From the sequence record SRR31156797_2770: 64,000 nt of DNA. One strand, 5' to 3'. Below the pieces are notes generated by a model, which searched no databases, was not told where the DNA came from, and saw only the letters and a program-made list of their open reading frames with translations. This document shows positions 29,100-47,077 of this stretch, in pieces. Numbering within the stretch: the stretch's first letter is position 1; each line of letters opens with the position of its first letter. Position numbers and translations under genes: made by a program.

Positions 29100-29121
29100 G
29101 AAAGGCAGGAGAACCAGACAA

Positions 29122-30070: not shown

Positions 30071-30085
30071 ATAGGAGGAATCGTT

Positions 30086-31150: not shown

Positions 31151-31161
31151 GAGGAAAAAAC

Positions 31162-31878
31162 ATGAGTGCCATTGAATTCAAACAAGTCAAAAAATCATTT
31201 AAAGATGGGGACGCGACGATTGAAGCCTTGAAAGAAACCAACTTTTCGGTAGAAAAAGGCGAATTTGTCGCCATCATCGGTCCTTCCGGCTCTGGGAAAA
31301 GTACCTTTCTGACGATTGCCGGTGGTCTACAAGCTCCCTCTGAAGGCGAAGTATTTATCAATGACGAACCCTTTAGTAAACAAAAAGAAAAGCAACGGGC
31401 AAAAACTCGATTCAAAAAGATCGGCTTTATTTTACAAGCTTCCAACCTTGTCCCTTTTTTGACGGTCAAAAAGCAACTTCAATTGGTGGATAAGGTCAGC
31501 AAAGAACCCCAAGAGCAATCAGCTACTGAATTGTTTGAACAACTAGGGATTGAAAAGCTGCAGAACAAATACCCCGATGAACTATCTGGTGGTGAAAGGC
31601 AGCGTGTGGCTATTGCCCGAGCGCTCTATCATGATCCCACCATCATTTTGGCAGATGAACCAACGGCGAGTCTTGATTCAAAAAAAGCCGTCGAAGTCGT
31701 CAAAATCTTAGCAAAAGAAACCAAAGAAAAACAAAAAGCCACCATTATGGTGACCCATGATACCCGTTTGACAGATTATTGTGATCGGGTCCTCGTCATG
31801 AAGGATGGCGTTTTAGAAGAAAAAGAACACACGAAAAAAGAAGCCGAATCAAGTGATTCGCAGAAGGAGCAAGCATGA
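31162..31878 (+). CDS. hrtA: ABC ATP-binding protein, HrtA-like
   Basis: GPSGSGKST, GFILQASNLVPFL, LSGGERQR and DEPTASLD motifs. Confidence 0.75.
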   Translation: MSAIEFKQVKKSFKDGDATIEALKETNFSVEKGEFVAIIGPSGSGKSTFLTIAGGLQAPSEGEVFINDEPFSKQKEKQRAKTRFKKIGFILQASNLVPFLTVKKQLQLVDKVSKEPQEQSATELFEQLGIEKLQNKYPDELSGGERQRVAIARALYHDPTIILADEPTASLDSKKAVEVVKILAKETKEKQKATIMVTHDTRLTDYCDRVLVMKDGVLEEKEHTKKEAESSDSQKEQA

Positions 31879-33362
31879 AAAAAATTATTGTTGTCGGTGC
31901 GGGCGTGTCAGGATTAGCTGCTGCTGTCCGTTTGCAAAAACTTGGCTATGACGTCACCCTCTACGAAAAAGAAGGTCAACCTGGGGGCAAAATGAATCAG
32001 ATCAAGGAAAACGGCTTTACCTTTGATGTGGGACCCACCATCGTGATGATGCCTGAAATTTATCGTGAAGTGTTTGAATTTGCTGGCGTTGATCCGAATG
32101 ACTATATTCCTATGGAGAAAGTCGATCCGATGCTGCAGCTGTATTTTGCTCAAGGCGAACCGCTGACCTTCTCAAACGACTTAGTAGAATTGACCAAAAC
32201 GCTAGAAGCGATCTCGGAAGAAGATGCTCAAGGCTATTTTGCCTTTTTAGCAGATATTTACAAACGCTATGTGATCGCCAAAGAGTCCTTCATCACCAAG
32301 TCGTTTCGGACATGGCGAGACTTTTACAATCCCAAATCATTATGGGCAGGGTTAAAGCTGCGAACGTTTAGTGACGCCTACTCTTCCATTTCTAAATTTG
32401 TCAAAGATGATCGCCTGCGAAAATCATTGGCGTTTCAAACCTTGTATATCGGTGTCTCCCCTTACCAAGGGCCGTCCCTTTATACCATCATCCCTATGAT
32501 CGAGTTGATGTATGGGGTCTATTTCATCAAAGGCGGCATGTATACATTAGCCACTGGTATGGCACGTTTGTTCCAAGAATTAGGCGGAACGATCCATTAC
32601 AATACCCCAATCGATGAATTATTGATCGAAAACAAGCAAACCAAAGGCGTTCGTGTCAATGGAGAAACGATCACCGCAGATGCCGTGATTTGTGCGGCTG
32701 ATTTTCCTTATGCTATGGAAAGCTTGATTCCTGATGAATCAAAACGCGGCAAATACACCAATCAAAAAATCGCTTCGATGGATTACTCTTGTTCTTGTTT
32801 CTTGCTTTATTTAGGACTGGACAAAAAATATGAAGATAGCGCACTCCATAGCATTTATTTTGCCAATGATTTCAAACGCAATGTAGACGATCTTTTCGAG
32901 GCTGGCAAGCTGCCAGAAGATCCTTCCTTCTACTTGTATCGTCCAACCCTGAAAGATGCTTCCTTAGCACCTGATGGTCAAGAAGGTCTTTATGTATTAG
33001 TCCCAGTACCTGAATTATCTAAATTTGATCAATGGACGGATGAAACGATCCAAAGCTACCGCCAGCAGATCATTGGATTATTAAAAGAAAAAACGATCTT
33101 TACGGATATCGATGAACACATCGTGTATGAAAAAATGTATACGCCAGATACGTTCAATGATCGGTTCAATGCCTACAACGGTGCGACATTTGGCTTGAAA
33201 CCAACCTTGTCGCAAAGCAATTACTATCGTCCCCATAATAAATTTGATTATGCAGAAGGCCTATACTTCTGCGGCAGCAGTACGCATCCGGGAGCGGGTG
33301 TGCCAATCGTGATGCAAAGTGCCAAGTTAGCTGTGGAGGAGTTGTTAAAAGATGACCGTTAA
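31875..33362 (+). CDS. crtN: 4,4'-diapophytoene desaturase (CrtI/CrtN family)
   Basis: GAGVSG FAD motif, FDVGPTIVMMP, FQTLYIGVSP and HPGAGVPIV. Confidence 0.9.
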   Translation: MKKIIVVGAGVSGLAAAVRLQKLGYDVTLYEKEGQPGGKMNQIKENGFTFDVGPTIVMMPEIYREVFEFAGVDPNDYIPMEKVDPMLQLYFAQGEPLTFSNDLVELTKTLEAISEEDAQGYFAFLADIYKRYVIAKESFITKSFRTWRDFYNPKSLWAGLKLRTFSDAYSSISKFVKDDRLRKSLAFQTLYIGVSPYQGPSLYTIIPMIELMYGVYFIKGGMYTLATGMARLFQELGGTIHYNTPIDELLIENKQTKGVRVNGETITADAVICAADFPYAMESLIPDESKRGKYTNQKIASMDYSCSCFLLYLGLDKKYEDSALHSIYFANDFKRNVDDLFEAGKLPEDPSFYLYRPTLKDASLAPDGQEGLYVLVPVPELSKFDQWTDETIQSYRQQIIGLLKEKTIFTDIDEHIVYEKMYTPDTFNDRFNAYNGATFGLKPTLSQSNYYRPHNKFDYAEGLYFCGSSTHPGAGVPIVMQSAKLAVEELLKDDR

Positions 33363-34275
33363 ATCATTAAGCGTCTTTGATGAATACGACAACGATTTTT
33401 TATACTGTGAGGCCATCATAAAAAAGCATTCGAAAAACTTTCATACCGCCTTTTCTCAATTGCCAAAAGACAAAGCACGCGCCGTCTATGCCGTCTACGC
33501 CTTTTGCCGACGTGCCGATGATGCCGTCGATGAAAAGCAAGACCCATTGTTGATCGAAGCCATGAAAAAACGCTTGGAAGAAATACAAGAACTATTAACC
33601 GGCGATGCGATCGACTTGCCGCAAGCCATCAAGGAAGAAGATCCTGATGAAGCCATTTGGCGGGCATTGACCCTTTCTTTCCAACAGTTTGACCTACAGT
33701 TTCAACCCTTTTTCGATCTATTGGTGGGACAAAAACAAGACCTTGACTTCCAGCAGCCCACCTCTGAAAAAGAGCTTTCCGACTATAGTTACTACGTAGC
33801 CGGCAGTGTGGGTCTGATGCTCTTGCCGATTCTCTCACAAACAGCCGCTGCGATTCAAGAGCCCGCCATAAAATTGGGTGAAGCGATGCAACGCACCAAT
33901 ATTTTACGTGATATTGGCGAGGATCTGCGAATGGGCCGCATCTATTTGCCACAAACGGTCTTGGCGCAATTCAACCTTTCGCGAGAGGCATTAGCAGCTG
34001 GCAATCAAAACCAGCAGTTTATCGAGATGTGGGAACACGAAGCGCAACTTGCTGAGACGCTTTATCAGGAATCTTTTGTAATGATGCCGCAAATCGATGA
34101 AGATTGCCGTGAAGCTCTATTAGCAGCTGCTTTGATCTATCGGGAAATCTTGACTGTGATCCGCAAAAACAACTATCAAGTATTTGCTGAAAAAACAGCG
34201 GTACCGAAACAACGGAAAATCCAACTTTTGTTTACCGCGAAAAAAATGCTTCGTCAGGAACGTTGGGAGGGCTGA
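33352..34275 (+). CDS. crtM: Dehydrosqualene (diapophytoene) synthase
   Basis: YAFCRRADDAVD, YYVAGSVG and NILRDIGED..GRIYLP motifs. Confidence 0.9.
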   Translation: MTVKSLSVFDEYDNDFLYCEAIIKKHSKNFHTAFSQLPKDKARAVYAVYAFCRRADDAVDEKQDPLLIEAMKKRLEEIQELLTGDAIDLPQAIKEEDPDEAIWRALTLSFQQFDLQFQPFFDLLVGQKQDLDFQQPTSEKELSDYSYYVAGSVGLMLLPILSQTAAAIQEPAIKLGEAMQRTNILRDIGEDLRMGRIYLPQTVLAQFNLSREALAAGNQNQQFIEMWEHEAQLAETLYQESFVMMPQIDEDCREALLAAALIYREILTVIRKNNYQVFAEKTAVPKQRKIQLLFTAKKMLRQERWEG

Positions 34276-34277
34276 CT

Positions 34278-34838
34278 TTGAACTTGCGAGAAAAAATATT
34301 ACGAGTCGCAGAAAACCTGTTTATGCAGCAGGGGTATCAAGCAACTTCTACTAGACAGATCGCAGAAGCCGTCGGCATCACCCAGCCCAATCTTTATTAT
34401 CACTTCGAAGGCAAAGAAGCCATCTATTATGAAGTGATGGTCTCTTTGGCACAAGAGGTTTCTGGAAAATTAAATCAGACTGTTGAAGATACTTCCTTGA
34501 CGATCTCTGAAAAAATCTTAAACATGTTTCTTTTTTTAAGAAGTCGGCATCGCATCAATTTTTATATGATGATGCACGACATTCAGCATACCGTTTCTGA
34601 GGACACTTCAAAAAAACTGTACTTGCTTTGGCGGAAAAATTACAAAGAACCGTTTCTTGACTTGTTCCGTCGCAGTGATTCCAATCTTCGTTCGGATGTC
34701 GATCCAGAATTTGTTACCAGCCAGTTGTTAGTGCTGATGGCGGCTCACTTGGACTCACCGGGAAAAGAAGACAAAATGCCAGAAGCGATCGATTTGTTTT
34801 TATTCGGTGCACTAGGCAGTGGGCCAATTGCGAAATAG
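34278..34838 (+). CDS. TetR-family regulator, FhtR-like
   Basis: LFMQQGYQATSTRQIA..ITQPNLYYHF HTH; TTG start with a GGGAGG RBS inside the end of crtM. Confidence 0.88.
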   Translation: MNLREKILRVAENLFMQQGYQATSTRQIAEAVGITQPNLYYHFEGKEAIYYEVMVSLAQEVSGKLNQTVEDTSLTISEKILNMFLFLRSRHRINFYMMMHDIQHTVSEDTSKKLYLLWRKNYKEPFLDLFRRSDSNLRSDVDPEFVTSQLLVLMAAHLDSPGKEDKMPEAIDLFLFGALGSGPIAK

Positions 34839-34937
34839 CGAGTCCAATTGGGTAATGCGCGAGAAAAATTATTAGACGAATTTCTGACAATCGCGTACAC
34901 TGATCCTGTAAACTGGAACATAAAAGGATGGATGTAC

Positions 34938-35516
34938 ATGTCAAAAAATCGAATCGAAGCCTTTACGGATGCGGTCATTGCGATCGTAATGACCTTATTA
35001 GTACTGGAATTGCACCAGCCCGAAGGCGATACATTTGCTTCTTTTTTAGGAGTGGAACAGCAATTTATTATTTATTTGATCAGCTTTGTGATGTTAGCGA
35101 TCTACTGGAACAATCACCATCATCTATTTCAAGTAGTATCTAAAATTGACGGTTGGACCTTGTGGGCGAATCATTTATTGATCCTGGCACTAACCCTCTT
35201 TCCTTTTGTAACGTCATGGGTCAGTCGTTATCCAGTCGCTCTTGCCCCTCAGCTGCTATACGGGTCTGTCATTTTATTGACGGATTTCAGCTATTTCCTT
35301 GTAGGAAAGTCCTTGGTGCGTGCCAACCCTGACAATCAAGCCATCGTAGAACTGTTTCGCGGATACAAGAAACTCTACTTTACGTTGTTTATCAACGTGC
35401 TGGCATTGCTCCTCGGCTGGCTGGTCCATCCACTACTTATCATCACGCTGGATAGTCTCGTGCTATTATTGTGGGTGATCCCTGAGAAAAAAGTAGAAAC
35501 CTTTTTAAAACAATAA
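34938..35516 (+). CDS. TMEM175 family potassium channel
   Basis: RIEAFTDAVIAIVMTLLVL and YWNNHH motifs. Confidence 0.9.
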   Translation: MSKNRIEAFTDAVIAIVMTLLVLELHQPEGDTFASFLGVEQQFIIYLISFVMLAIYWNNHHHLFQVVSKIDGWTLWANHLLILALTLFPFVTSWVSRYPVALAPQLLYGSVILLTDFSYFLVGKSLVRANPDNQAIVELFRGYKKLYFTLFINVLALLLGWLVHPLLIITLDSLVLLLWVIPEKKVETFLKQ

Positions 35517-35621
35517 AAACACTTGCGTCCTTCTCCTGATGGATAACTGCGCAAAAGCAGAACAATCGGCTGCTTTTGCGCAATCATCCATCGCTTTTAG
35601 GAGAAGGACGCAAGTGTTTTT
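35515..35621. terminator. Long nested hairpin acting as bidirectional terminator
   Basis: 23-bp perfect outer arms (35515-35537 and 35599-35621) enclosing 7-bp and 13-bp inner stems. Confidence 0.75.
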
Positions 35622-35622
35622 T

Positions 35623-36627
35623 CTAGCGAATCAAGTCTTTCCCAGGTGCCCGTAAGACTTGTTCCACTTGTTCTTTGGTGGTTAAGGGGACATCTCCCAG
35701 CATCGTATGAGCCAATACAGCATTCGTGATTGCAAAATCAGCGGTGCGTTGGAGCGACCATTTTTCGGCATAGCCTAATAATACACCAGCGGCATAGGCA
35801 TCCCCTGCCCCGATCCGATCCAAGACTTGCAGCAGCTGCGGTGCCGTTTCATAGGCATCCTGCGCCGTAATGATTCTTCCACTGATAAACTGCTTGTCTT
35901 CCACGGCTAGACGGCGTGTCCCGCAGAACCATTCTAGTTGATACTGGTCAATAAAGGATTGGATCAACGCAAGCTCGGCGCCTTCTGTTTCCTCTAAGGG
36001 ATATGCCAGCAGCTCCTCCAAGTCACGGACAGAGCCGAAAACTAGATCACAATAAGGTAGAATCGTTTCATACCGTTGTTTTAGTACCTCCCGATTTAAT
36101 TCTTCATTCAAGCTTGGGCGGAAGTTAAAATCAAAGCAGACGCGAATCTGCTTTACATGGGCCTGTTTCGCCAAAGCCAATGCAGTTTGCCAGGTTCTCT
36201 CAGTCAAACTAAGAGAGATCCCGCAAATATGAATGAGATCGACTGTTTCTAGAAATCCATCGATGGCATATTCTTCTGGACCTGAAACGCCAAAGGAACT
36301 ATGATGGCGATTTTGATAAGTCACGTAAGTCGGACGAGCGCCGTAGCCGATCTCGGCGAAATAACTGCCGATATGGCTGTATTTTTTGCCAACAAATGCT
36401 GTTTGAATCCCATAGGAACGCAAGCTGGCTTTCGCCGTATCCCCTAAACGGTTGGCTGGCACTTGTGTCAGCATCGAGGTGGTCAAGCCGAAATGCGCCA
36501 AATTGCCTAACAGATTGACCCCTGTTCCTGTAAAATCCATCCGCAAAGAGTGGGTCTGTTCCAGTGTTCGATATTCTGGTGGTGTCAACCGCATCATTAC
36601 CTCACCGTAAGCACCGATTCGCATCAT
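35623..36627 (-). CDS. kdgK: PfkB sugar kinase, 2-keto-3-deoxygluconate kinase-like
   Basis: GEVMMRL, FDFNFRPSL and DRIGAGDAYAAG motifs. Confidence 0.75.
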   Translation of the reverse strand: MMRIGAYGEVMMRLTPPEYRTLEQTHSLRMDFTGTGVNLLGNLAHFGLTTSMLTQVPANRLGDTAKASLRSYGIQTAFVGKKYSHIGSYFAEIGYGARPTYVTYQNRHHSSFGVSGPEEYAIDGFLETVDLIHICGISLSLTERTWQTALALAKQAHVKQIRVCFDFNFRPSLNEELNREVLKQRYETILPYCDLVFGSVRDLEELLAYPLEETEGAELALIQSFIDQYQLEWFCGTRRLAVEDKQFISGRIITAQDAYETAPQLLQVLDRIGAGDAYAAGVLLGYAEKWSLQRTADFAITNAVLAHTMLGDVPLTTKEQVEQVLRAPGKDLIR

Positions 36628-36636
36628 TGATCCCCC

Positions 36637-37386
36637 CTATTTGGCTGCTGCCAGTACCTTTTTCGTCATTTCTGCTAATTTCTGTACATCTTCAGGGCGT
36701 GTGTCCCCTGTTTCGCCATCGATGATCGAGCTGTAAATATGTGGAATGACTTTTTTCACTCCTGCATCAACAGCGATCTGCAAGATTTCTTCAAAGTTTT
36801 CTAAATCGATGCCGCCGGTCGGTTCCAAATAAAAATCATTCGCAGCACAAGCCTCTGCTACTGCTTGATACTCTGCTTTATGAGCCAACCCTTTCATTGG
36901 AAAATACTTGATAGAACTAGCCCCCATATCTTTTAATAAAGCGATCGCTGTTTCGACGGGGACTTCTGCAGCTGGAGTTTGTGAACTCAATGGTCCAGTA
37001 GCAATATTGACATAGCCGACTTTTCCCGTTGGTGAAACAAGGGCATTGACGATCGTTTCAGATTGTCCTAGCAAAGCTCGTGAGGTCCCCGCTCCCGTGA
37101 ACACTTGGTTAACATGCTGTGGCTGTAGAACAGCGGAAATTCGGGAGACCATTTCACTTTGGTTGGGGTCGCCAGCACCAAGTCCAACAGAAAGGGCATT
37201 ATTTGTTGCCGCTTGATAGGTTTTCATGTCAAAGATGGCTGCCTCATCGCTAGCATAATTTTTTGATAAAACACCTAGGACGATGTTGCCCTCTGCTGCT
37301 TCATAACAAGCTTTCGCATTTTCAATAGAGTTTGCTAACACATTCAGACAGACACGGTCAGCGAAATAATTGGGTGAAGTTTTCAT
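36637..37386 (-). CDS. dgaF: KDPG aldolase, DgaF family
   Basis: SVGLGAGDPNQ, QHVNQVF, SIKYFPMKG, LEPTGGID and IPHIYSSII motifs. Confidence 0.85.
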   Translation of the reverse strand: MKTSPNYFADRVCLNVLANSIENAKACYEAAEGNIVLGVLSKNYASDEAAIFDMKTYQAATNNALSVGLGAGDPNQSEMVSRISAVLQPQHVNQVFTGAGTSRALLGQSETIVNALVSPTGKVGYVNIATGPLSSQTPAAEVPVETAIALLKDMGASSIKYFPMKGLAHKAEYQAVAEACAANDFYLEPTGGIDLENFEEILQIAVDAGVKKVIPHIYSSIIDGETGDTRPEDVQKLAEMTKKVLAAAK

Positions 37387-38489
37387 TTTTGGGTTGCTCC
37401 TAACATAATTTCTTGTAAGCGATCGGTGATCACTGCCATTTCTTGTTCATTGACTGCTCGGATATCAAATTCAATAATGCCGTTATTGGCTTGGTATTCA
37501 CGGGTATAAATCGCTGGTTCTCCCGCTTTTAGCGCGTCGATCACTGCTTTGGCACTTGGTTCTTTCACTTTGACACTCGCTCGATAAATGTCTCTGCCGG
37601 CGCTGTCTTGAACGATTTTTGCTTCGAAACCAGTGATTTCATTGATTGCCGCAATAAATGGTTGTAGGCGCTCTTGCATCGAAGCGCCAGATTCTGTTCC
37701 CTCCGCTAGATAATCCGTCACGGCTTGGGTAAATCCGAGAATATTGTCTTTACCGATTTTCATTGCTCGACCAATACCTTTGGATTGCAGGCGCACCCAA
37801 GAGACATAGGGCTGCTTGCCGATCACTAAGCCAGCACTTGGTCCTGACAGTGCTTTCGCACCTGAATAGATCACTAAATCAGCACCTGCTTGGGTATAGG
37901 CAAACAAATCTTCCTCAGCAGCCGCATCAACGATCAATGGAAGATCGTGTGCCTTGGCAACTTGGGCCGTTTCTGCTACCGTCAGCATACTTTTTTGAAC
38001 GGTATGATGACTCTTTATGTAGAGGATCCCCGCCGTTTCGGGCGTAATCATCTGTTCAATGTGCTCGGGTGTGCACATATTGGCATAGCCTGCTTCTACG
38101 ACTTTTCCGCCGCCTTGCGCCACCATCACTTCCACCGGTGTGCCATAATCTACGTTGTGGCCTTTGGGCAAAATGATCTCCCGCTTGCTGATTTTCTCAC
38201 TATATGGGTGGTACAAATGATAGCTGTCTCCTTGACCGATGAGTGCCGCCACTGATTGGGCGATTCCCGCCGAAGCGGAAGAAACGATTTGCGCATCTTC
38301 CGTTTTCAACAATTTTGCTAAATAGGCACCGGTTTTTTCTGCTAGATCTGCCATTTCAAAGAAATGCTCCCCGCCATAGCGCTGGGCTGCAAGCACGCCT
38401 TCGCTGACTTTCGAGACACCTAGAATCGTCATTTTGCCGGAAGCATTGATGACTTCTTTCAAGCCTAGTTCTTCAATATTCAGTGTCAA
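37383..38489 (-). CDS. dgaE: PLP-dependent ammonia-lyase, DgaE family (SelA-like fold)
   Basis: VINASGKMTILGVS, YIKSHH, DAAAE, YSGAK and GIGRAMKIGK motifs. Confidence 0.85.
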   Translation of the reverse strand: MTLNIEELGLKEVINASGKMTILGVSKVSEGVLAAQRYGGEHFFEMADLAEKTGAYLAKLLKTEDAQIVSSASAGIAQSVAALIGQGDSYHLYHPYSEKISKREIILPKGHNVDYGTPVEVMVAQGGGKVVEAGYANMCTPEHIEQMITPETAGILYIKSHHTVQKSMLTVAETAQVAKAHDLPLIVDAAAEEDLFAYTQAGADLVIYSGAKALSGPSAGLVIGKQPYVSWVRLQSKGIGRAMKIGKDNILGFTQAVTDYLAEGTESGASMQERLQPFIAAINEITGFEAKIVQDSAGRDIYRASVKVKEPSAKAVIDALKAGEPAIYTREYQANNGIIEFDIRAVNEQEMAVITDRLQEIMLGATQK

Positions 38490-39585
38490 AAAGTTCCCCT
38501 CCTATCACCGCTTTTTGCGGCACGATCTGTTGTGTCGTGATTCGGCGATTGCCGTTAGAATCCGTCAATTCCTTTTCGCCCTCTTCAAAGCGGAAAATCG
38601 TAAAATCAGCATCATATCCCAATGCGATCTCGCCTTTGTCCTGTAAATGAAATTGCTTCGCAGGGGCACTGGTCACCTTCTCGATGATCTCACGCCAATC
38701 ATACCCTACGACCGCTAATTTTTCCATAGTCGTCGCTAAATCAAAAACAGGTCCATTGGTACGATTGCGGATGTAGATATCCGTACTAATGGAAGAAGCC
38801 TTTAGCTGATTGGCAAAGGCCGTCTCCGCCACATCAAAATTAAAACTGTCTGTCCCATGACCAATATCGAAGACCAAGCCTTTTTCATAGGCAGCAAAGA
38901 CGAAAGGCTTGATGGTTTGGTTCGTCTGATCCAAAATCCCATTGGGTTTGCCGTTAAAGCAATGGGTCACCACATCGCCTGCTTCCAATTCAGCGAGAAT
39001 CTCTGCTAAATTCGGTGGTGCTGAGCCGATGTGAACCATCAGAGGCAGCGGTTGATTTTCAGCCTGGATCGCTTTGGCTAATTTCAACGGTGTGATGCCA
39101 TTTTCGCCGATCACCGTTTTGCTCATTCGGGCTTTGATTCCGACGATAAAGTCAGGAAACTTCTGCAGCGCTTCTTTGACCAATTCTTTTTTGACTTTTG
39201 ACAGATCCGCAAGTTCATCCTGCTCTACGATCCCCCATTTGGAAATATTGACTAAAGCAAAGACATTGGTTTTGGCTTCTTTGGCTAAATCATAAAACCG
39301 ATGGATATTTTCGGCGCCAGTCGTCCCCGCATCGATAACGGTCGTGACGCCTCGTTTGACACCGATCTCGTCTGGATAATCATAATAGAGCGTCATTTCC
39401 TCGAAACAATGGACATGGTCATCGATCCAACCAGCTGACAAGAACTCCCCTTCTGCTAAGGTCAGCTCTTGTTTCGCCTGCTCCTGCAACGTGGGTGCCA
39501 AAGCAGTGATTTTGCCGTCTTGAACCCCAATATCAAATACTTCTTCATCGATCGTGCGGGCTTGACGAATAATCAAATCAAACAT
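38473..39585 (-). CDS. Amidohydrolase/deacetylase family metallohydrolase
   Basis: WIDDHVH, DAGTTG, KAR, MVHIG, THCF, DIGHG and STD metal ligands. Confidence 0.88.
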   Translation of the reverse strand: MFDLIIRQARTIDEEVFDIGVQDGKITALAPTLQEQAKQELTLAEGEFLSAGWIDDHVHCFEEMTLYYDYPDEIGVKRGVTTVIDAGTTGAENIHRFYDLAKEAKTNVFALVNISKWGIVEQDELADLSKVKKELVKEALQKFPDFIVGIKARMSKTVIGENGITPLKLAKAIQAENQPLPLMVHIGSAPPNLAEILAELEAGDVVTHCFNGKPNGILDQTNQTIKPFVFAAYEKGLVFDIGHGTDSFNFDVAETAFANQLKASSISTDIYIRNRTNGPVFDLATTMEKLAVVGYDWREIIEKVTSAPAKQFHLQDKGEIALGYDADFTIFRFEEGEKELTDSNGNRRITTQQIVPQKAVIGGELFDTEY

Positions 39586-39589
39586 TTCG

Positions 39590-40684
39590 TTACACCTTCC
39601 TCTCTGTGAAAGTGAATTTCGACCAAGGATGGATAAAGGGCAGCAGAACTAACTCTTGTTCGACGATCGAACCGATTTTATTTTTTCGTGGGTCTGAGTG
39701 AGGCTCTAGCACTACTTGCAGCTCGTTTTTGTACTTGCCAAAACGATCATTGCCGATCACAACATCCCCTCGTTGAAAGACGCCTTCGTGGTCATGGGCA
39801 GGATTGTCATGGTTCTTATACTTTTTACGAACTTCTGTGGAACGGATCATCCGGTCAGTGATGTCGCCTCGGCGGTAATGCTGCTCGTCAAGGGCGATTC
39901 GGCGTTCAACTTCATTGATTTCAGGCACAAATTCAATCGCAAATGCCGTCTGGTAGCGATCAATCGCTCCTAGTGCCGCCAATTCTGCTTCCGAAGCATA
40001 AGCATTGCCGATAATGACATCATCAATCAAGCCTGTGGCAAACAAATGCTTTGCGGCAGTTTCTACAGGCATTCTTCGGTGCATTTCTAAGGTCGGTAAG
40101 CCATCATTGATATCCCAAGGTCCGATCGTTCCCGTTTGAGAAGAGATAAATGCGGCGGTTCGAATGCCTTTTTCCTTGAAACGACGACTGCATTTTTCAA
40201 AGAAATCATAGGGTAAGGCAGTCCCTTCTTGTGGATAGAAATTGTGGCAGCCGTATAAGTAAGGAATGTTGGCTTGATAGGTCAAAATATTGTCTAAATA
40301 CGCCACATCATTGCTCATATTCAATTCAACAGCTAAACCAAAGGGATTGTAGGTCAACATCGCTTCTTTGTTGCCGTCAAAACCTAAATCTAAACGAATC
40401 CCATCGGCACCTAGTTCATGGAAAAAGGTCAAGTCATCATAGGAGATGCCTAGTTCAGAAAAGATGGCTGGTGCCACGTCTAAAATCGTTTCATAGCCTA
40501 ACCCTTTGGCAAAATCAATCAACGCTTTAAATTTTTTCTGCACGTTTTCTTTGCCGTCGCTCACTTCCAACATACTCATAAAAATGCGGCTAAAGCCATA
40601 ATCATGGGCTAATTGCAGATAGGCTTTATCTGTTTCAAAATCACTGTGATCGGGATACACCGATACTCCTAGTTTTCTTTTCAA
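39590..40684 (-). CDS. DUF871/MupG-family phospho-glycosidase
   Basis: LGVSVYP, IRLD, ELNMS, CHNFYP and GLPTLEMHR motifs. Confidence 0.88.
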   Translation of the reverse strand: MKRKLGVSVYPDHSDFETDKAYLQLAHDYGFSRIFMSMLEVSDGKENVQKKFKALIDFAKGLGYETILDVAPAIFSELGISYDDLTFFHELGADGIRLDLGFDGNKEAMLTYNPFGLAVELNMSNDVAYLDNILTYQANIPYLYGCHNFYPQEGTALPYDFFEKCSRRFKEKGIRTAAFISSQTGTIGPWDINDGLPTLEMHRRMPVETAAKHLFATGLIDDVIIGNAYASEAELAALGAIDRYQTAFAIEFVPEINEVERRIALDEQHYRRGDITDRMIRSTEVRKKYKNHDNPAHDHEGVFQRGDVVIGNDRFGKYKNELQVVLEPHSDPRKNKIGSIVEQELVLLPFIHPWSKFTFTERKV

Positions 40685-40685
40685 C

Positions 40686-40937
40686 TTATCTCATCCTCAT
40701 TTCTTCATAAAAAGCAGTAAAACGTGTCAGTAAAAGCGAACTGCAAACAATCGTCGCCGTCATCGTCAAAAATGGTCCCCATGGAAACTGACGGCTCAGT
40801 AGGATCGCTGCAGCAACGCCAAGAATCCCGAACAAAAGCATCCGCCAAAACGGCACTTCTTGAATTTTTTTCCCTTGTGCTGATTTTGTTAACCAAATTT
40901 GACAACCAAAAAATAAACAAATGGCATAAATCCCCAT
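40686..40937 (-). CDS. Small membrane protein with three hydrophobic segments
   Basis: GAGGTG RBS; fills the gap between the IIC and DUF871 genes. Confidence 0.75.
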   Translation of the reverse strand: MGIYAICLFFGCQIWLTKSAQGKKIQEVPFWRMLLFGILGVAAAILLSRQFPWGPFLTMTATIVCSSLLLTRFTAFYEEMRMR

Positions 40938-40964
40938 GTTTGCACCTCACTCTTTTTGTTTTGC

Positions 40965-42263
40965 TTAAGCGGCTGTTTCTTCTTCTTGCTCTCGGGCAAT
41001 CTGCTGTTTCTCAAAGACTTTAAAGAATGGGTAATAGATTGCGAGTGTGATAAAGAAGTTGACGATCACTAAAATCGCTGCTGCGATACTCCAGTCCGTA
41101 CTCATCCAGGCGGCGATTGGTGCTGGAATGGCAAACCCAAGTCTGGCAGCCATCATCGGTACAACACCGGTAATGGTAGCGAAGTAAGAAATCGTTGTCG
41201 TAATCAACGGTGCCACCAAGAAAGGAATACCTAAGATTGGGTTCATTACGATCGGTGCACCGAAAATCACTGGTTCATTGATATTGAATAGGCCTGGCAA
41301 GATGGACAAACGGCCCAATTGTTTCAAGTATTTTGATTTGGAGAAGAAGAACAAAACGACCAACGCTAAGGTCGTACCGGCTCCACCGATCCATACGAAC
41401 CATTGTAAAAATTGTTCCGTAAAAATATTAGGCAATTCATGCGCATTGCCAGATGCTTGGAAGGCTTCCATATTTTCAGCGATGGAAATATCCCAGAAGG
41501 GACGAATGACAGGACCCATGATGGCTGGTCCATGAATTCCCAGTACCCAGAAGAAACAGATCAAGAAGACAGTCAGCAAACCACCAAACAAGCTATTACC
41601 AGCAAGCACGTCTTTTAACGGCATCAACAAGTTACTTAAAAAGCCATTGATGTCAAAGCCTAACATATGACGGATCACCCAGAACAAAATCAGGATCGCT
41701 CCTCCAGGAATCAACGCCATGAATGAATTCGTCACTTCTGGTGGCACGCCATCTGGCATTTTGATGGTAATGTTTTTTACGATAAAGAAACGATAGATTT
41801 CAACGGACAAGATTGCCGTGACGATCGCGCCAAACAAAGAGCCGGAGCCTAGGTTGGCCACATTGATATAACGTCCCGCATCAATGATACCTTCCACAGA
41901 ATCAAAGACTCGCAACGGTGGTGCAGCGGTTACAAGAAAGGACATCGTTGCTAAAATACCCGCAGTCAATGAATCCAGCTTGTAGCTTTTGGCTAGCGAT
42001 GAAGCAATCCCATACGTTGCATACAATGCCAATAACCCGACTGTATAACGAAAGGGAATATCCAAAACTTCCCGATACGGTTCGATCACGGCAGCGACTG
42101 ATTCGATGGGAAAATTCAGTAAGATCGTGAAGAAAGACCCAACGATCGTTAATGGTAAAGTAGCGATGATCCCCTTACGAATCGCTACCATGTGCCGTTG
42201 CATCCCCACTTTATTTGCAATCGGCATCAATTTCTGTTCAATAAATTCTACAAACCCTTTCAT
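40965..42263 (-). CDS. PTS lactose/cellobiose/chitobiose-family IIC permease
   Basis: KMPDGVPP, WVLGIHG, GGAGTT, FNINEP and YYPFFK motifs. Confidence 0.95.
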   Translation of the reverse strand: MKGFVEFIEQKLMPIANKVGMQRHMVAIRKGIIATLPLTIVGSFFTILLNFPIESVAAVIEPYREVLDIPFRYTVGLLALYATYGIASSLAKSYKLDSLTAGILATMSFLVTAAPPLRVFDSVEGIIDAGRYINVANLGSGSLFGAIVTAILSVEIYRFFIVKNITIKMPDGVPPEVTNSFMALIPGGAILILFWVIRHMLGFDINGFLSNLLMPLKDVLAGNSLFGGLLTVFLICFFWVLGIHGPAIMGPVIRPFWDISIAENMEAFQASGNAHELPNIFTEQFLQWFVWIGGAGTTLALVVLFFFSKSKYLKQLGRLSILPGLFNINEPVIFGAPIVMNPILGIPFLVAPLITTTISYFATITGVVPMMAARLGFAIPAPIAAWMSTDWSIAAAILVIVNFFITLAIYYPFFKVFEKQQIAREQEEETAA

Positions 42264-42403
42264 AATTGCCTCCTTAGTTTATAACATTATAATGTTTATA
42301 CAAGAATAATAGCACAGAGGATCTGGGTTCGTAAATAGTTTTTTAAACAGTAGATAGAATAATCTTTTCGCAATAACATTTCCTACAATAACCATCAAGC
42401 GTC

Positions 42404-42649
42404 CTATCGTTGTCCTTTCGGTCGATACTGATACATAAATCGATTTTGGATGACGGTACAATTGATAATAAGTAACAAAATGAAAACTGGCGCCAAAGGA
42501 GTGCGGATCAACAGTAAAAACAAACTGAGTAAGAAAAGTAAGGAAACAAGTAATAGTTTCCAAAAAGACAGCGTGATTCTAGCATTATTTTTTTCTAAAA
42601 GAAGATGGGTCAGAAAAATCGAGAGCAAACAACTCACTACTAGAACCAT
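42404..42649 (-). CDS. Small membrane protein, probable paralog of 40686-40937
   Basis: Hydrophobic; starts next to the IIC stop (ATG 42649, alternative GTG 42658); shares a motif with 40686-40937. Confidence 0.7.
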   Translation of the reverse strand: MVLVVSCLLSIFLTHLLLEKNNARITLSFWKLLLVSLLFLLSLFLLLIRTPLAPVFILLLIINCTVIQNRFMYQYRPKGQR

Positions 42650-42650
42650 T

Positions 42651-43955
42651 CTACTCACCTTCTTTAACTGTTTCTAGCTCTTGCGCCACTTGAAGTTTCT
42701 CAAATGCTTTGAAGAATGGATAATAAATCGCTAACGAAACGAAGAAACAGACGAAGACCATCAAACAAGCAACCCAATTCCAATTTGAGGTAATCAATGC
42801 GCCAAGAGGTGCGGGAATTGAAAATGGTGGTTTGACCATCATCTTAGGCATCCAATTTAAAGCGGTAACGATATAAACTATAATGGTATTAGCAATTGGC
42901 ACTAGAATAAAGGGAATCGCCAATAGCGGATTCATTACAATCGGTGTCCCAAAGATCATTGGTTCATTAATATTAAAAATTCCCGGTAAAATGGAAAGAC
43001 GCCCCAATTGTTTTAAATAGTTTGAACGGGAGAACATAAACAAAACAACCAATGCAAGCGTTGATCCTGTTCCACCCATTTGGGCATACCATTGATAAAA
43101 TTGCTCGGTAAAAAGATTTGGTAGATCAAAGGCAGACATCCCATTTTGGAACAATTCTGCATTTTCTAAAATTGCCTGATCCCAAAACGGGCGAATGATG
43201 GGACCTAAAACGGCATGGCCATGAATACCCAATACCCAGAATACACAGATTACAAATTGTGTGATGATCCCACCAATCAAATTATTTCCCGTTAAGAACC
43301 CTTTTAAAGGAGAGATGGCGATCGTCAACAATCCATTTAAATCAAAACCAAAAAAGTGTCGCGGAATCCAAAAGACTAAGATAACTAGCAAGGTTGGTAG
43401 GAGTGCCGCAAAGGATTCTCCTACCACAGGAGGTACGCCTTCTGGCATCTTGATTTCCAAGTTTTTTGCTTTCGTAAAATGATAAATCTCTACTGAAACT
43501 AGCGCCGCAATGATCGCACCGAATAGTCCTTGTGATCCAAGTGAAGCGATGGGTAAATACCTTCCTGCAAGTACGGCATCTCCTGTCGTGCTGATGCCTT
43601 CCGCCAAATTGATTGGAACGACCATTAAAATCGTCGCTAACATGGATAAAAACCCACTTGTTATCCGATCGAGTTTGTAACTTGCACCTAAGTTGGAGCC
43701 GATCGTAAATGAGGCATAGAGAGACATTAGCCCCACCGTAAATCGAAAAGGAATGTCAAGTGCCGGTAAATAAGGAGCGACCCATTCGGTATAACCAGGA
43801 ATCGGCAAATTTAAAATAATGGTGAAAAAAGAGCCAACGATCGTGAGCGGCAAAATAGAAATCAACCCATTTCGAATTGCCTGCAAGTGCCGCTGCTGTC
43901 CAATAGCATTGGCAATCGGTAATAACTTCATTGCAACCGAGTCTAAAACTTTCAT
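42651..43955 (-). CDS. PTS lactose/cellobiose/chitobiose-family IIC permease
   Basis: KMPEGVPP, WVLGIHG, GGTGST, FNINEP and YYPFFK motifs. Confidence 0.95.
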   Translation of the reverse strand: MKVLDSVAMKLLPIANAIGQQRHLQAIRNGLISILPLTIVGSFFTIILNLPIPGYTEWVAPYLPALDIPFRFTVGLMSLYASFTIGSNLGASYKLDRITSGFLSMLATILMVVPINLAEGISTTGDAVLAGRYLPIASLGSQGLFGAIIAALVSVEIYHFTKAKNLEIKMPEGVPPVVGESFAALLPTLLVILVFWIPRHFFGFDLNGLLTIAISPLKGFLTGNNLIGGIITQFVICVFWVLGIHGHAVLGPIIRPFWDQAILENAELFQNGMSAFDLPNLFTEQFYQWYAQMGGTGSTLALVVLFMFSRSNYLKQLGRLSILPGIFNINEPMIFGTPIVMNPLLAIPFILVPIANTIIVYIVTALNWMPKMMVKPPFSIPAPLGALITSNWNWVACLMVFVCFFVSLAIYYPFFKAFEKLQVAQELETVKEGE

Positions 43956-43967
43956 TATAAAAACCTC

Positions 43968-45359
43968 CTAAAATTCGTTTGAAAAACCATTTCTTTGAAT
44001 CACTTCTTTAAACCATAGACCAGACTTTTTCACCGTTTTTTCTCCTGTTTCTAAATCTAAGCGATAAAAGCCATAGCGATTTTTGAACGCATTTTGCCAA
44101 CTCCAACAGTCCACAAATGTCCACATGTGATACCCCAGACAGTTACTACCCTCCGTCATTGCTTGGTGAAGCTCAATTAAATGCTCTTTTAAAAAAGCAA
44201 TCCGATAGTTGTCTTGTACTTGCCCCCCTTCGATAAATGTTTCTTCTCCCTGAATCCCGATGCCATTTTCTGAAACAAACCAATCAATATTCCCGTATTC
44301 TAACTGGATTTTTTTGGCGATATCATACAAGCCATGAGGATAAATTTCAATCCCCCTTGAAGTATTCATCCTTCTGCCGGGCATCTCGTAATCATCGTAA
44401 AACCATTCTGGCGAAAAAACTCCCTCGGGATTAGGCAATGATTCTTTGGCTCTCACTCGCCGTGGACGGTAATAATTGATCCCTAACAGATCAATCGTTG
44501 TTTCAGCAATCAAGGCAAGATCCTGTTCTTCCACTCGTGGCATTTGGTCGTAGCACGTTAAAATAGCCTTTAACTCTTGAGGGTAACGACCTTTTAATAT
44601 CGCTTCATTAAGGGAGCGAGTATAGAAGAGGTCTGCCATTTCCGCTGCCTTTAAGTCGGCAGGATGCTGGCTTCTTGGGTAAACTGGGATCACATCCATG
44701 ATGATACCGATTTTTCCTTGATAAGTTCCTTGTCGAAAGACCTTAACTGCCTCACAGTGAGCAAGGATGATATGGTGAAGTACTTGTGCCGCTCGTTTAA
44801 AATCAACTACATAAGGATAGTGCCGGTCATGCAAATAGCCGGCTTCTGCTGGAATCATCGGCTCATTAAAGGTAAACCAGTACGCAACTTTCTCATGAAA
44901 TAAATCAAAACAAATTTTCGCATACGCCCGATACGCTTCGACGACCTCACGATTTTCAAATCCGCCGATTTCTTGTAATTTCATTGGCATGTCAAAGTGA
45001 TAAAGATTGATAAACGGTTTGATGCCTCTTTGATTTAACCCATCAAGCATTCTGGTATAAAAGTCAACTGCTTCTGGATTGACTTCCCCTGTACCTTCGG
45101 GAATAAGACGTGACCAAGAGATCGAAGTCCGAAAAGAATTAAAAGAAAGTGCCGCCATTCGATCCAGATCCGCTTCCATTTCCTGATAAAACCTTGATGT
45201 ATGTTCTGTTGTAACTCCTTCAAAAAACCGATGGTTATAGTTTTTTGATGCATAATCCCAAATGTTTTCTCCTTTATTGTCTCCAGCTATCGTTCCTTCT
45301 GATTGTGTCGCACTCGTTGCTGCACCCCAGAAAAAGTCCTTCGAAAAATTATACTCCAT
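43968..45359 (-). CDS. GH1 6-phospho-beta-glucosidase (GmuD/CelA-like)
   Basis: FFWGAATSATQSEG, TFNEP, VSENG and NAFKNRYG motifs. Confidence 0.95.
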   Translation of the reverse strand: MEYNFSKDFFWGAATSATQSEGTIAGDNKGENIWDYASKNYNHRFFEGVTTEHTSRFYQEMEADLDRMAALSFNSFRTSISWSRLIPEGTGEVNPEAVDFYTRMLDGLNQRGIKPFINLYHFDMPMKLQEIGGFENREVVEAYRAYAKICFDLFHEKVAYWFTFNEPMIPAEAGYLHDRHYPYVVDFKRAAQVLHHIILAHCEAVKVFRQGTYQGKIGIIMDVIPVYPRSQHPADLKAAEMADLFYTRSLNEAILKGRYPQELKAILTCYDQMPRVEEQDLALIAETTIDLLGINYYRPRRVRAKESLPNPEGVFSPEWFYDDYEMPGRRMNTSRGIEIYPHGLYDIAKKIQLEYGNIDWFVSENGIGIQGEETFIEGGQVQDNYRIAFLKEHLIELHQAMTEGSNCLGYHMWTFVDCWSWQNAFKNRYGFYRLDLETGEKTVKKSGLWFKEVIQRNGFSNEF

Positions 45360-45393
45360 GTCGCCCTCCTACAATTCCTTTTTTACTAAGCGA

Positions 45394-45407
45394 AGCATCC
45401 GCTTACA
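45394..45407 (-). promoter_or_regulatory. cre-like site upstream of GH1; second cre-like site at 45467-45480
   Basis: TGTAAGCGGATGCT and TGAAAACGTTCTCT on the minus strand. Confidence 0.55.
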
Positions 45408-45530
45408 TTATTGAACAACGAAAGTATAGCATGAAGTAAAATCAATATAATGTTATAATCCTAAATAGAGAACGTTTTCATCCCTTGTCATTTGTTCCAC
45501 AAAAAAAACACTTTGTTACGGAGGTGCATC

Positions 45531-46301
45531 ATGCTTTTTCTTGACTACAATCCTGAACTTACTGCACTAGAATACGAGGTTTACCGATTTGTATCAAAAA
45601 ACTTGGCTTCAGTGTCTAAAATGAAGATGAAAGAACTTGCCAAAGAGACTCATACCAGTACTGCTAGTATTAGCCGCTTTTGCAAGAAATTTGAATGTGA
45701 TACGTTTACCGAATTTAAGATCAATTTGCGCTTTTACTTAGATTCTCTCGTAAAATCCAAAATATCCGATAGTGATGAATCTCAAACAATTGATTTCTTA
45801 AAGCGAGTAAACCAGCCCTTTTTATCTGAAAGAATCAATCGAGCAACAGAGATTCTTAAGAACAAAAGCTTCGTGCTATTTATTGGATCAGGCTTATCTG
45901 AAACGATTGCGGAATATGGCGCACTCTATTTTACTGACTTGGGAAAAACGGCATTAAAAGTTGACGATCCCTCAAATTATCCTATCGACTGGTTTCCAGA
46001 AGACATATTGTGCAAAACCGGTATCATTGTTTTGTCGATTTCTGGGGAAACACAAGAAATGATTCGATACTTACAAAAGTTAAATCAAAAAGAGTGTCAG
46101 ATTATTGCCATCACGAATACCGAAGATTCAACCATCAGCCAGTTATCCGACTTGACGGTGCCCTATTACATCGAAAGAGAGACCATTTTTAAAGCCAGTC
46201 AGAAAAAAGAGAAAACCATTGAACTGACTTCTCAACTACCAGCAATCTATTTAATTGAAAAAATTGCCAAAAGAATACGCCTATCAGAAGAACTTCTCTG
46301 A
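45531..46301 (+). CDS. RpiR/MurR family regulator
   Basis: HTH TSTASISRFCKK..FTEFK and SIS domain LSISGET; GGAGGT RBS. Confidence 0.92.
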   Translation: MLFLDYNPELTALEYEVYRFVSKNLASVSKMKMKELAKETHTSTASISRFCKKFECDTFTEFKINLRFYLDSLVKSKISDSDESQTIDFLKRVNQPFLSERINRATEILKNKSFVLFIGSGLSETIAEYGALYFTDLGKTALKVDDPSNYPIDWFPEDILCKTGIIVLSISGETQEMIRYLQKLNQKECQIIAITNTEDSTISQLSDLTVPYYIERETIFKASQKKEKTIELTSQLPAIYLIEKIAKRIRLSEELL

Positions 46302-46325
46302 TAGACGCAGGTAGTTTCATTTTAT

Positions 46326-47063
46326 TCAGCGATCTTCACAATCTGTAACTAAATCAAATAAAAGTTCCACCAAATAAATGGCTGGAATTTGTGAGGACAA
46401 TGAATCAGCTTCTTGATTATCGGAATAATAATAAGCAAAATTTCGCTCAGATAGTTTAGCAATTGACGTTGTTGAACGATTTGTCAGTGAAATGGTTGAA
46501 ATTCCAGAGAGGCTACATTCAGTGATCAAAGATTCAAGGAATGGATCGGCGCCTTTATTAGAAAAGACTAGCAACGTGGTTTCGCTACTTAAGGTTCGCC
46601 AAACGGATTTAATCGATGTTGCTTCTTCCTCTACGCTCACGATCTTATCTAAACGTGCAAACTTTTGTTGGGCATAGCTCAAAGCAAGTGTCGATTCCCT
46701 ATCACTGGCTAAGATCAAAAGTTTTGCTTTACTTATTCGTTTGGCGATCGTTAATAATGTTTCTCGATAGAAGGATTCATCCATACGTTCAAAAAAATAG
46801 TGCAGGGCTTTTTTATCTTGTTTGAATAATCGATCAGTCTTTCCTTGTTTCTGTAACGTCTTTTTCAATTTGATTTTAAATTCTGAAAAACCTTCGCAAT
46901 CAAATTTTCGACAAAACCGCAGAACAGTCGTTGAGCTAGTTTTTGTTGTATCAGCCAGTTCACGAATAGACATCGAACAGACTTCTGCTTGCTGATTTAA
47001 AACGTATTGAAATAGTTGCCATTCTTTCTTACTGAACGACTTATTCTTGGCAGTGAGTTCCAT
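46326..47063 (-). CDS. RpiR/MurR family regulator with a divergent SIS domain
   Basis: SIRELA..TSSTTVLRFCRK..GFSEFK HTH. Confidence 0.88.
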   Translation of the reverse strand: MELTAKNKSFSKKEWQLFQYVLNQQAEVCSMSIRELADTTKTSSTTVLRFCRKFDCEGFSEFKIKLKKTLQKQGKTDRLFKQDKKALHYFFERMDESFYRETLLTIAKRISKAKLLILASDRESTLALSYAQQKFARLDKIVSVEEEATSIKSVWRTLSSETTLLVFSNKGADPFLESLITECSLSGISTISLTNRSTTSIAKLSERNFAYYYSDNQEADSLSSQIPAIYLVELLFDLVTDCEDR

Positions 47064-47077
47064 TCGTTTTCTCCTTG

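Follow-up and report, generated by a model that had tools for sequence, protein, structure and literature searches.

The stretch of DNA that was analysed (64,000 nt of sequence record SRR31156797_2770, in the following called the window) contains seven open reading frames (ORFs) on the minus strand, which run from position 42263 to position 35623 and form one closely spaced unit. They encode a membrane component of a phosphotransferase system (PTS), a small membrane protein, a glycoside hydrolase of family GH170, an amidohydrolase, an ammonia-lyase, an aldolase and a kinase, and this gene set may serve the use of a disaccharide that ends in an oxidised amino sugar. An earlier note on this DNA had described the seven genes as one packed unit, and its coordinates and families were borne out by the ORF list and the profile scores. 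The distances between successive genes were 27, 1, 4, -17, -4 and 9 nt (negative values are overlaps). The features of the locus are the following (KDG, 2-keto-3-deoxygluconate; KDPG, 2-keto-3-deoxy-6-phosphogluconate; PLP, pyridoxal phosphate; 6-P, 6-phosphate):

42283..42296, minus strand: perfect palindrome AACATTATAATGTT, presumed operator (read from the sequence)
40965..42263, minus strand: PTS enzyme IIC (IIC) of the lactose/cellobiose family, 432 aa (PF02378, TIGR00410)
40686..40937, minus strand: small membrane protein without family, 83 aa (hydrophobic ORF, conserved position)
39590..40684, minus strand: GH170 (DUF871/MupG-family) enzyme, presumed 6-phospho-beta-glycosidase, 364 aa (PF19200, PF05913)
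38473..39585, minus strand: EF_0837-type amidohydrolase, presumed deacetylase of N-acetyl-D-glucosaminate or its 6-phosphate, 370 aa (TIGR03583, PF22647)
37383..38489, minus strand: DgaE-family PLP ammonia-lyase, presumed to convert D-glucosaminate-6-P to KDPG, 368 aa (TIGR01437)
36637..37386, minus strand: DgaF-type KDPG aldolase, 249 aa (PF07071, NF047796)
35623..36627, minus strand: KdgK-like PfkB kinase, presumed 6-kinase for freed N-acetylglucosaminate, alternatively KDG kinase, 334 aa (PF00294)
35515..35621, minus strand: intrinsic terminator, a long hairpin followed by a U-run (fold energy)

The terminator hairpin is located directly 3' of the kinase stop codon and has a folding energy of -76.4 kcal/mol (z = -13.6); none of 200 shuffled sequences was equally stable. 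It also serves a convergent TMEM175-like gene. The nearest genome, G001, was used as a stand-in for the organism of the window; it contains 75% of the window's words, and its copy of the operon is 98% identical at the DNA level.

The IIC matched PF02378 with 205 bits and passed the family model TIGR00410 (390.9 bits, cut-off 236). The operon contains no IIA or IIB gene; G001 has 4 lactose (Lac)-family IIA and 27 IIB matches, none of which was listed on the operon contig (C56). The GH170 protein passed both MupG_N (PF19200; 322.6 bits, cut-off 24) and MupG_C (PF05913; 123.6 bits, cut-off 24.4), and its matches in the PDB were 1X7F (477 bits) and 2P0O (111 bits). The 83-aa ORF between these two genes had no match in Pfam or NCBIfam and, by BLAST, no similarity to an 84-aa ORF that follows a second IIC gene further upstream. 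However, in 55 of 63 loci an ORF of 83-110 aa on the same strand, with a strongly hydrophobic segment, was found between the IIC gene and the DUF871 gene, and many of the small ORFs at this position have a C-terminal KYRxKFxxMERG-like motif.

The amidohydrolase passed TIGR03583 ('EF_0837'; 539.7 bits, cut-off 432), and it matched PF22647 ('Deacetylase EF_0837-like') with 87.3 bits and the PDB entries 2ICS (570 bits) and 2OGJ (226 bits). DgaE passed the family model TIGR01437 (563.6 bits, cut-off 385), reached 373.1 bits with the Salmonella equivalog NF047797 (cut-off 600), and matched PDB 7LC0/7LCE with 301.5 bits. Its PLP lysine, K212, is present, and H161/H162 and R303/R330/R344 align with His-162/163 and Arg-301/332/346 of the Salmonella enzyme DGL. 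DgaF matched PF07071 (354.6 bits), passed the equivalog NF047796 (391.1 bits, cut-off 300), and reached 403 bits with TIGR03581 ('EF_0839/AHA_3917'). The kinase matched PF00294 (PfkB) with 97.6 bits and PDB 3KTN with 420 bits. Nothing relevant was found in the literature on the PDB entries 8WZY, 8JE0, 3KTN, 2ICS, 1X7F and 8T7J.

A scan with the DUF871 protein, with one genome per species, was used to analyze the conservation of the unit. Among the best 80 of 216 loci, the DUF871 gene was followed by the amidohydrolase gene in 66, and the DUF871 orthologues were 67-98% identical. All six large genes were detected by tblastn in 57 of these 66 loci, and three of the nine exceptions were cut by the end of the DNA; by ORF clustering, the kinase family was present in 61. 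The earlier note had mentioned similar clusters in other enterococci, and these were indeed seen, together with clusters in further genera. Among the hosts were many Enterococcus species and Vagococcus, Lactococcus formosensis, L. petauri, Pseudolactococcus, Companilactobacillus, a Lacticaseibacillus, Marinilactibacillus, Pilibacter termitis (no kinase match by tblastn at this locus), and metagenome-assembled genomes of a Turicibacter and a member of the Lactobacillales, and more distant copies were found in other Bacilli families. A DgaE relative was present in 97 of 134 Enterococcaceae species genomes, and in 72 genomes a DUF871 orthologue (identity 68% or more) was located about 2.2 kb from a DgaE match (coordinates compared by hand). 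Conversely, 72 of the 74 cross-checked Enterococcaceae with a DUF871 match of at least 68% had it within about 2.2 kb of DgaE; a further 68% match in genome G026 was not adjacent. Of twenty regions examined, 13 had the order DUF871-amidohydrolase-DgaE-DgaF-kinase, 12 of them with an IIC match. The recurrence of the gene set rules out a chance grouping, and the unit is supported as one operon that is kept across the Lactobacillales, far outside the enterococci.

The DgaE-DgaF core was found with four different front-ends, which are called contexts A to D. In context A (3 loci) it is combined with a sigma-54/PRD activator and with IIA, IIB, IIC and IID of the mannose (Man) family, without amidohydrolase and without kinase. 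Context B (4 loci) consists of a PRD regulator, a small PRD protein, a Gly-rich SFCGS protein, DUF4312, DUF4311 and DUF4310, then amidohydrolase-DgaE-DgaF, again without kinase. Context C is the operon type of the window, with Lac-family IIC and GH170, and includes the kinase. Context D is found in other Bacilli families and has the order amidohydrolase-DgaE-DgaF-kinase, with a GntR/UTRA regulator and a GntP-family permease encoded downstream; it was present in three of eight annotated loci without IIC (a ninth such locus, L137, is outside this count). All 13 Lac-PTS/DUF871 loci had the kinase, and so did the GntP context, but it was missing from the three Man-PTS loci and from the four loci with the SFCGS-type transporter. 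In a class-wide sample, 13 of the 14 kinase loci examined had the order amidohydrolase-DgaE-DgaF-kinase, and 4 of those 13 also had IIC-DUF871. A 100%-complete genome that has context B only contained no kinase relative at E <= 1e-5.

As read from gene content, these distributions support the view that the kinase tracks routes by which the acid should enter unphosphorylated, i.e., as the aglycone of a disaccharide imported by a PTS or via a gluconate-type permease. The earlier note had taken the extra kinase as the mark of an unphosphorylated aldonate; the distribution over the four contexts fits this claim, and the pattern appears to be its strongest support. Because context D carries a GntP permease, it is an independent pointer to a gluconate-like acid, and the logic of an aldonate aglycone seems to be well supported. 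Genes of the type B transporter were also located directly upstream of the IIC gene in genomes G002 and G097 and in 17-18 of the 66 loci; a single catabolic set would then serve the uptake of both monomer and disaccharide.

Examples of context B without kinase are L010 (4042-8518), L016 (12020-16560) and L021 (13941-18510). The SFCGS/DUF4310-4312 set resembles a PTS-like uptake system of a kind not described before, and no functional treatment of these genes was found in the literature searched. Context D was seen outside the Lactobacillales at the loci L124, L128 and L135, and may be regarded as a candidate cluster for the use of monomeric N-acetylglucosaminate. In the genus of L124 (genomes of 5.0-5.6 Mb) lytic polysaccharide monooxygenases (LPMOs) were present in six of six sampled genomes. 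No LPMO match was obtained for the genomes of L128 and L135.

Taken together, the aglycone is probably an N-acyl-glucosaminate that is released unphosphorylated. For the whole operon, we propose that it serves the uptake and catabolism of a beta-linked disaccharide with N-acetylglucosaminate (GlcNAc1A) at the reducing end by a phosphorylated route of six steps, and we put the chance of this just short of even. The IIC would import the disaccharide and phosphorylate O-6 of its non-reducing sugar, using IIA and IIB encoded elsewhere and possibly also the 83-aa membrane protein. The GH170 enzyme would hydrolyse the phosphorylated disaccharide to a sugar-6-P and free GlcNAc1A; with N-acetylglucosamine (GlcNAc) as the sugar, GlcNAc-6-P would go to NagA/NagB. 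The KdgK-like kinase would then place a phosphate on O-6 of the freed GlcNAc1A, and the EF_0837-type amidohydrolase would take off the acetyl group. DgaE would convert the resulting D-glucosaminate-6-P to KDPG and ammonia, and DgaF would cleave KDPG to pyruvate and glyceraldehyde-3-phosphate.

The GH170 step has precedents. MupG cleaves the disaccharide of N-acetylmuramic acid (MurNAc) 6-phosphate and GlcNAc, MurNAc-6P-GlcNAc, and in the excerpt of that report its catalytic residues were not known to its authors (PMC6262408; this article and PMC12791066, PMC9529869, PMC9537276, PMC12502629 and PMC13325158 are cited from excerpts). In Lacticaseibacillus paracasei, growth on chitobiose needs the GH170 gene chbE together with a cellobiose-type PTS (PMC12791066). 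MurP (a PTS of the glucose family), the etherase MurQ and MurR are all absent from the operon of the window; the neighbours of its GH170 gene are the Lac-family IIC gene and the dga-type genes. The closest DUF871 paralogue in G001 (62.7% identity) is part of a three-gene operon with an AnmK-like kinase and a Lac-family IIC (L110 8772-12549, contig C77), which suggests PTS uptake of a disaccharide of the GlcNAc-anhydroMurNAc type and a kinase for its aglycone. This design of PTS, GH170 and kinase would parallel the operon of the window, because the aglycone cannot be phosphorylated by the PTS. A further operon type with DUF871 and GH1 genes was found at L098 (5233-11092), L099, L100, L102-L105 and L107-L109, in the Enterococcus avium group and Ligilactobacillus apodemi; by Pfam, L098 and L100 encode IIB, IIA, an Eis-like acetyltransferase, IIC, GH1 and DUF871. 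Four Atopobiaceae loci with DUF871 relatives (67-71%) were uninformative, and at L083, the one examined, the gene lies amid defence-type genes.

Several points weigh against the proposed route, and they concern the deacetylase, the order of the steps and the disaccharide. The deacetylase role of the amidohydrolase is presumed from family names and from a study of cog3964 by Ornelas et al. (2013), in which relatives such as PDB 2OGJ are reported to act on acetyl-(R)-mandelate. As to the order, the closest named relatives of the kinase are KDG kinases: its top NCBIfam families are KDG or KDG/KDGal kinases, all far under their cut-offs (e.g., NF052444 with 47 versus 400 bits), and the Thermotoga maritima KdgK, PDB 2AFB, matched with 126 bits. 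These relatives favor an order in which the same substrate, GlcNAc1A, would be deacetylated without prior phosphorylation, DgaE would make KDG, a true KDG kinase would follow, and DgaF would cleave KDPG. The position of the kinase gene, which is the last one after DgaF in most loci, and the Pseudoalteromonas route, which is unphosphorylated until KDG (PMC9537276), are also in line with this order, which the earlier note had assumed. Nevertheless, we regard it as improbable. In genome G002, contexts C and A encode DgaE proteins with 99.2% identity and DgaF proteins with 100% identity. As the two copies are near-identical and the Man-PTS delivers the 6-phosphate in Salmonella (PMC9529869), the same DgaE presumably acts on the 6-phosphate in either context. 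The equivalents of Arg-301/332/346 and His-162/163 were conserved without exception in 20 sequences of contexts A to C and in a set of 14 that includes context D, thus also where a kinase is present; Phillips et al. placed the three arginines near the phosphate by manual docking only (PMC9529869), which belongs to the points against the proposal. Furthermore, the operon is split in genome G120, with IIC, an 86-aa ORF, DUF871 and kinase in one unit and GntR-amidohydrolase-DgaE-DgaF in the other, and in E. canis one unit contains IIC-DUF871-amidohydrolase-kinase and DgaE-DgaF are located at another place. The G002 identities, the invariant arginines and the company of the kinase in G120 suggest that it behaves as a front-end part and acts earlier. 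Therefore, it probably phosphorylates the freed acid ahead of deacetylation and deamination, as judged from these gene arrangements; provided that an N-acyl-glucosaminate is released unphosphorylated, an action ahead of DgaE has a somewhat better than even chance. A weak phosphorylation of GlcNAc1A is on record for the Pseudoalteromonas KdgK (PMC9537276).

As to the disaccharide, chitobionic acid (GlcNAc-beta1,4-GlcNAc1A) is the leading single candidate, albeit with less than an even chance, and its origin from LPMOs would be plausible and unproven. The IIC was below the cut-off of both the cellobiose equivalog TIGR00359 (390.9 versus 434.45) and the equivalog of the Escherichia coli chitobiose IIC, NF007634 (180.8 versus 760 bits), and does not appear to fix the non-reducing sugar. 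Its nearest paralogue (54.8% identity) is the neighbouring IIC that is coupled to a GH1 enzyme, and, by tblastn, DUF871 paralogues of 64-65% identity directly follow an IIC gene and a GH1 gene within the other operon type. The GlcNAc1A aglycone could thus belong to another disaccharide, with glucose, galactose, glucosamine or MurNAc as the non-reducing sugar, or host enzymes, insect enzymes, oligosaccharide oxidases of fungi or gut reactive species could be responsible for the oxidation; we consider this rather unlikely. An oxidoreductase of the Gfo/Idh/MocA family, which is encoded upstream in 19 of the 66 loci, would fit such a substrate. Enterococci, lactococci, listeriae and bacilli commonly possess chitin-active LPMOs. 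The co-occurrence with AA10 LPMO genes proposed as a check by the earlier note was seen as an enrichment, with LPMOs in 48 of 72 operon-bearing Enterococcaceae versus 6 of 62 others, and class-wide in 19 of the 35 genomes that encode a kinase relative versus 32 of 366 others, i.e., about six-fold for the module (hand counts), ratios that overstate the link because related genomes are not independent. The association is leaky, however: 24 of the 72 Enterococcaceae, 9 of 10 operon-bearing genomes outside this family, and 16 of the 35 class-wide genomes with the kinase module had no LPMO. In addition, G001 had no GH18 match although it has an LPMO, and ORF clustering of the 66 loci revealed no chitinase or LPMO among the recurrent neighbours of the operon. 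On the other hand, operon bacteria without LPMO could feed on the products of other organisms, which is speculation, and no abundant natural glycoside of GlcNAc1A other than chitobionic acid is known to us. Chitobiase turns soluble LPMO products into GlcNAc and GlcNAc-GlcNAc1A, which leaves the dimer as their natural end product (PMC13325158). A last explanation is that one transcript combines two unrelated functions, IIC-DUF871 for chitobiose, cellobiose or MurNAc-GlcNAc, and amidohydrolase-DgaE-DgaF-kinase for a monomeric acid that is imported separately. The catabolic module indeed occurs without IIC-DUF871 in other contexts, and GH170 enzymes elsewhere act on ordinary disaccharides (PMC6262408, PMC12791066), but DUF871 and DgaE are neighbours in 72 of the 74 cross-checked Enterococcaceae, G001 has one DgaE without an adjoining type A or type B transporter, the halves of the split operon keep a common operator that is otherwise nearly unique in the genome, and the kinase was never found with PTS-type monomer uptake. 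This explanation is therefore very improbable. The proposed route can also be generalized to a phosphorylative GlcNAc1A pathway of the Bacilli (6-kinase, EF_0837 deacetylase, DgaE and DgaF) with exchangeable front-ends, here a Lac-PTS and a GH170 specific for chitobionic acid; in this full form it is doubtful.

The LPMO of G001 is an AA10 protein of 487 aa with fn3 and CBM5/12 domains (L111 9737-11200, contig C120). It is flanked by a flavoprotein reductase-like gene on one side and by a gene pair for a 2-hydroxycarboxylate transporter and a malic enzyme on the other, and the operon is not nearby. The duplication of DgaE and DgaF in two operons of G002 (L010 versus L011, 99-100% protein identity) has a counterpart in E. 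faecalis, where ef_0839 and ef_2975 are identical genes (PMC2912369). EF0838 was marked 'potentially critical' by transposon sequencing (PMC7701990), which might reflect ambiguous read mapping of duplicates rather than essentiality.

The palindrome AACATTATAATGTT has a TATAAT hexamer at its centre and is located about 27 nt 5' of the IIC start. Its 9-mer core was present within 200 bp upstream of the IIC gene in 54 of 62 loci of several genera, compared to a background of about 0.01 per 200 nt (81 matches in 1,595,251 nt). G001 contains a single perfect copy, at the operon. In G120 both units carry the palindrome, and no other site with at most one mismatch was found in the genome; a control with the reversed pattern gave one. 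Contexts A and B lack the palindrome, as do the AnmK operon and the GH1 paralogue operon. The -10 box of the promoter would lie inside the palindrome, which is presumed to be the operator of a GntR/HutC-type repressor. A GntR/UTRA regulator adjoins the operon in 38 of the 66 loci but is not adjacent in the window; G001 encodes a 54%-identical protein downstream of ftsK, its best match to the regulator is on contig C43, and the repressor gene of this species would not be beside the operon. In E. faecalis, EF0834 encodes a cellobiose-type IIC, has its own 124-nt leader, and is a NagY target after induction by GlcNAc (PMC12502629); its predicted ribonucleic antiterminator sequence overlaps the 9-mer of the palindrome (PMC12502629). 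Upstream of the IIC gene of the window no clear catabolite-responsive element (cre) was found by eye. The supplements of an E. faecalis RpoN study list EF0361/EF0362, but not EF0834, EF0836, EF0837, EF0838 or EF0840.

Eighteen runs labelled as ant metatranscriptomes contained 60-68% of the words of the operon. Four of these runs were mapped to positions 29000-48500 and gave contigs of up to 8-10 kb, about 99% identical, that cross convergent genes at flat depth. The contigs were rejected as transcripts, and as evidence on operon structure or induction, as the flat depth across convergent genes looks like DNA. From the high identity of the contigs, a close relative of the source organism is present in ant-associated samples.

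Upstream of the operon on the same strand, the window contains a GH1 gene (43968-45359), the second Lac-family IIC gene (42651-43955) and the 84-aa hydrophobic ORF (42404-42658). The block at 42404-47063 also has two RpiR genes, at 45492-46301 (plus strand, divergent) and 46326-47063 (minus strand); upstream of GH1, at about 45400-45455, there is a cre-like site together with half of the operon palindrome. It was found in the relatives L032, L034, L047 and L014, and is absent from E. innesii GAL7 (L030, the closest named record), where a GNAT gene directly precedes the operon IIC. For this reason it was treated as a separate insertion outside the finding. The region 31875-34275 encodes a CrtI-family desaturase (495 aa) and a protein of the squalene/phytoene-synthase family (307 aa), which fits a yellow-pigmented enterococcus. 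The Gfo/Idh/MocA oxidoreductase gene of other loci lies upstream of the operon's regulator on the same strand (e.g., L049 1577-2533, L035 6290-7246); it could be an unrelated neighbour or encode an oxidising or reducing step at C1 of a sugar.

The operon was compared with four characterized systems. It shares with Salmonella dgaRABCDEF the trunk of DgaE-family PLP lyase and KDPG aldolase DgaF, including the histidines and arginines of DGL, but lacks the Man-family PTS DgaABCD and the sigma-54 activator DgaR, and adds Lac-family IIC, GH170, amidohydrolase and kinase; a dga-like layout is found in relatives as context A. In Salmonella, DgaABCD, DgaE and DgaF work with a Man-family PTS and without a kinase (PMC9529869). 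The Pseudoalteromonas ong route comprises the deacetylase OngB, the deaminase OngC and KdgK (PMC9537276), and the overall chemistry would be the same: a glycosidase releases GlcNAc1A from GlcNAc-GlcNAc1A, the acid is deacetylated and deaminated, and a KdgK-type kinase and a KDPG aldolase take part. According to the family descriptions in the excerpt of that report, however, all parts of the operon except the kinase are from other families. The operon has GH170 acting on a PTS-phosphorylated disaccharide instead of the periplasmic GH20 enzyme OngA, a PTS instead of TonB receptors and the SSS symporter OngIT, an EF_0837-family enzyme instead of the D-aminoacylase OngB, a SelA-like DgaE instead of the D-amino-acid deaminase OngC, and no RidA (OngD). 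In addition, the intermediates of the operon's route probably carry a phosphate from the first step on; the ong authors tested this option and rejected it for their own organism (PMC9537276).

With S. aureus MurP-MupG-MurQ (PMC6262408) the operon would share the principle that the PTS phosphorylates the non-reducing sugar and that a DUF871/GH170 enzyme frees a sugar-6-P and an unphosphorylated aglycone. Its PTS belongs to another family (lactose/cellobiose, not MurP), there is no MurQ and no MurR, and its downstream genes would act on an amino-aldonate and not on MurNAc-6-P. The order of cellobiose-type IIC, small accessory gene and GH170 is the same as in chbC-chbD-chbE of L. paracasei (PMC12791066), where genetics point to a 6-phospho-GlcNAc glycosidase (PMC12791066). 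However, the accessory protein is an 83-aa membrane protein without Pfam match instead of a 139-aa DUF3284 protein, IIA and IIB are missing, and there are four additional genes for the aglycone. The earlier note had described MupG as cleaving a 6-phospho-N-acetyl-aminosugar disaccharide, Salmonella Dga as using a Man-family PTS without a kinase, and a marine route of deacetylase, deaminase, KdgK and aldolase, which agrees with the excerpts of PMC6262408, PMC9529869 and PMC9537276, respectively. The operon joins the dga trunk, the PTS and GH170 logic of the MurP/MupG and chb type, and the ong chemistry, and as a system it is a member of none of them.

In the literature searched, no PTS for chitobionic acid, no Gram-positive GlcNAc1A route and no glucosaminate kinase were found, and the EF083x genes were represented functionally only in transcript and transposon-sequencing lists. 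The only described route for the aldonic-acid products of LPMOs is that of marine Proteobacteria, according to the excerpt of PMC9537276. If the proposal is true, the operon would provide the first route for LPMO products in Gram-positive bacteria and would define a phosphorylated variant of amino-aldonate catabolism. Its GH170 enzyme would be the first one with an aldonate aglycone and would widen the known specificity of the family, the KdgK-like protein (a relative of PDB 3KTN) would be a new GlcNAc1A 6-kinase, and the SFCGS/DUF4310-4312 genes would represent an undescribed PTS-like uptake system for the monomer. The presence of a kinase in some dga-type clusters but not in others would be accounted for, and a substrate would be assigned to a widely conserved operon (in E. 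faecalis around EF0834-EF0840) as well as to the orphan structures PDB 2ICS, 3KTN and 1X7F. For enterococci of the gut and of insects, oxidised amino sugars, made by LPMOs or by the host, would then be a nutrient niche that can be tested.

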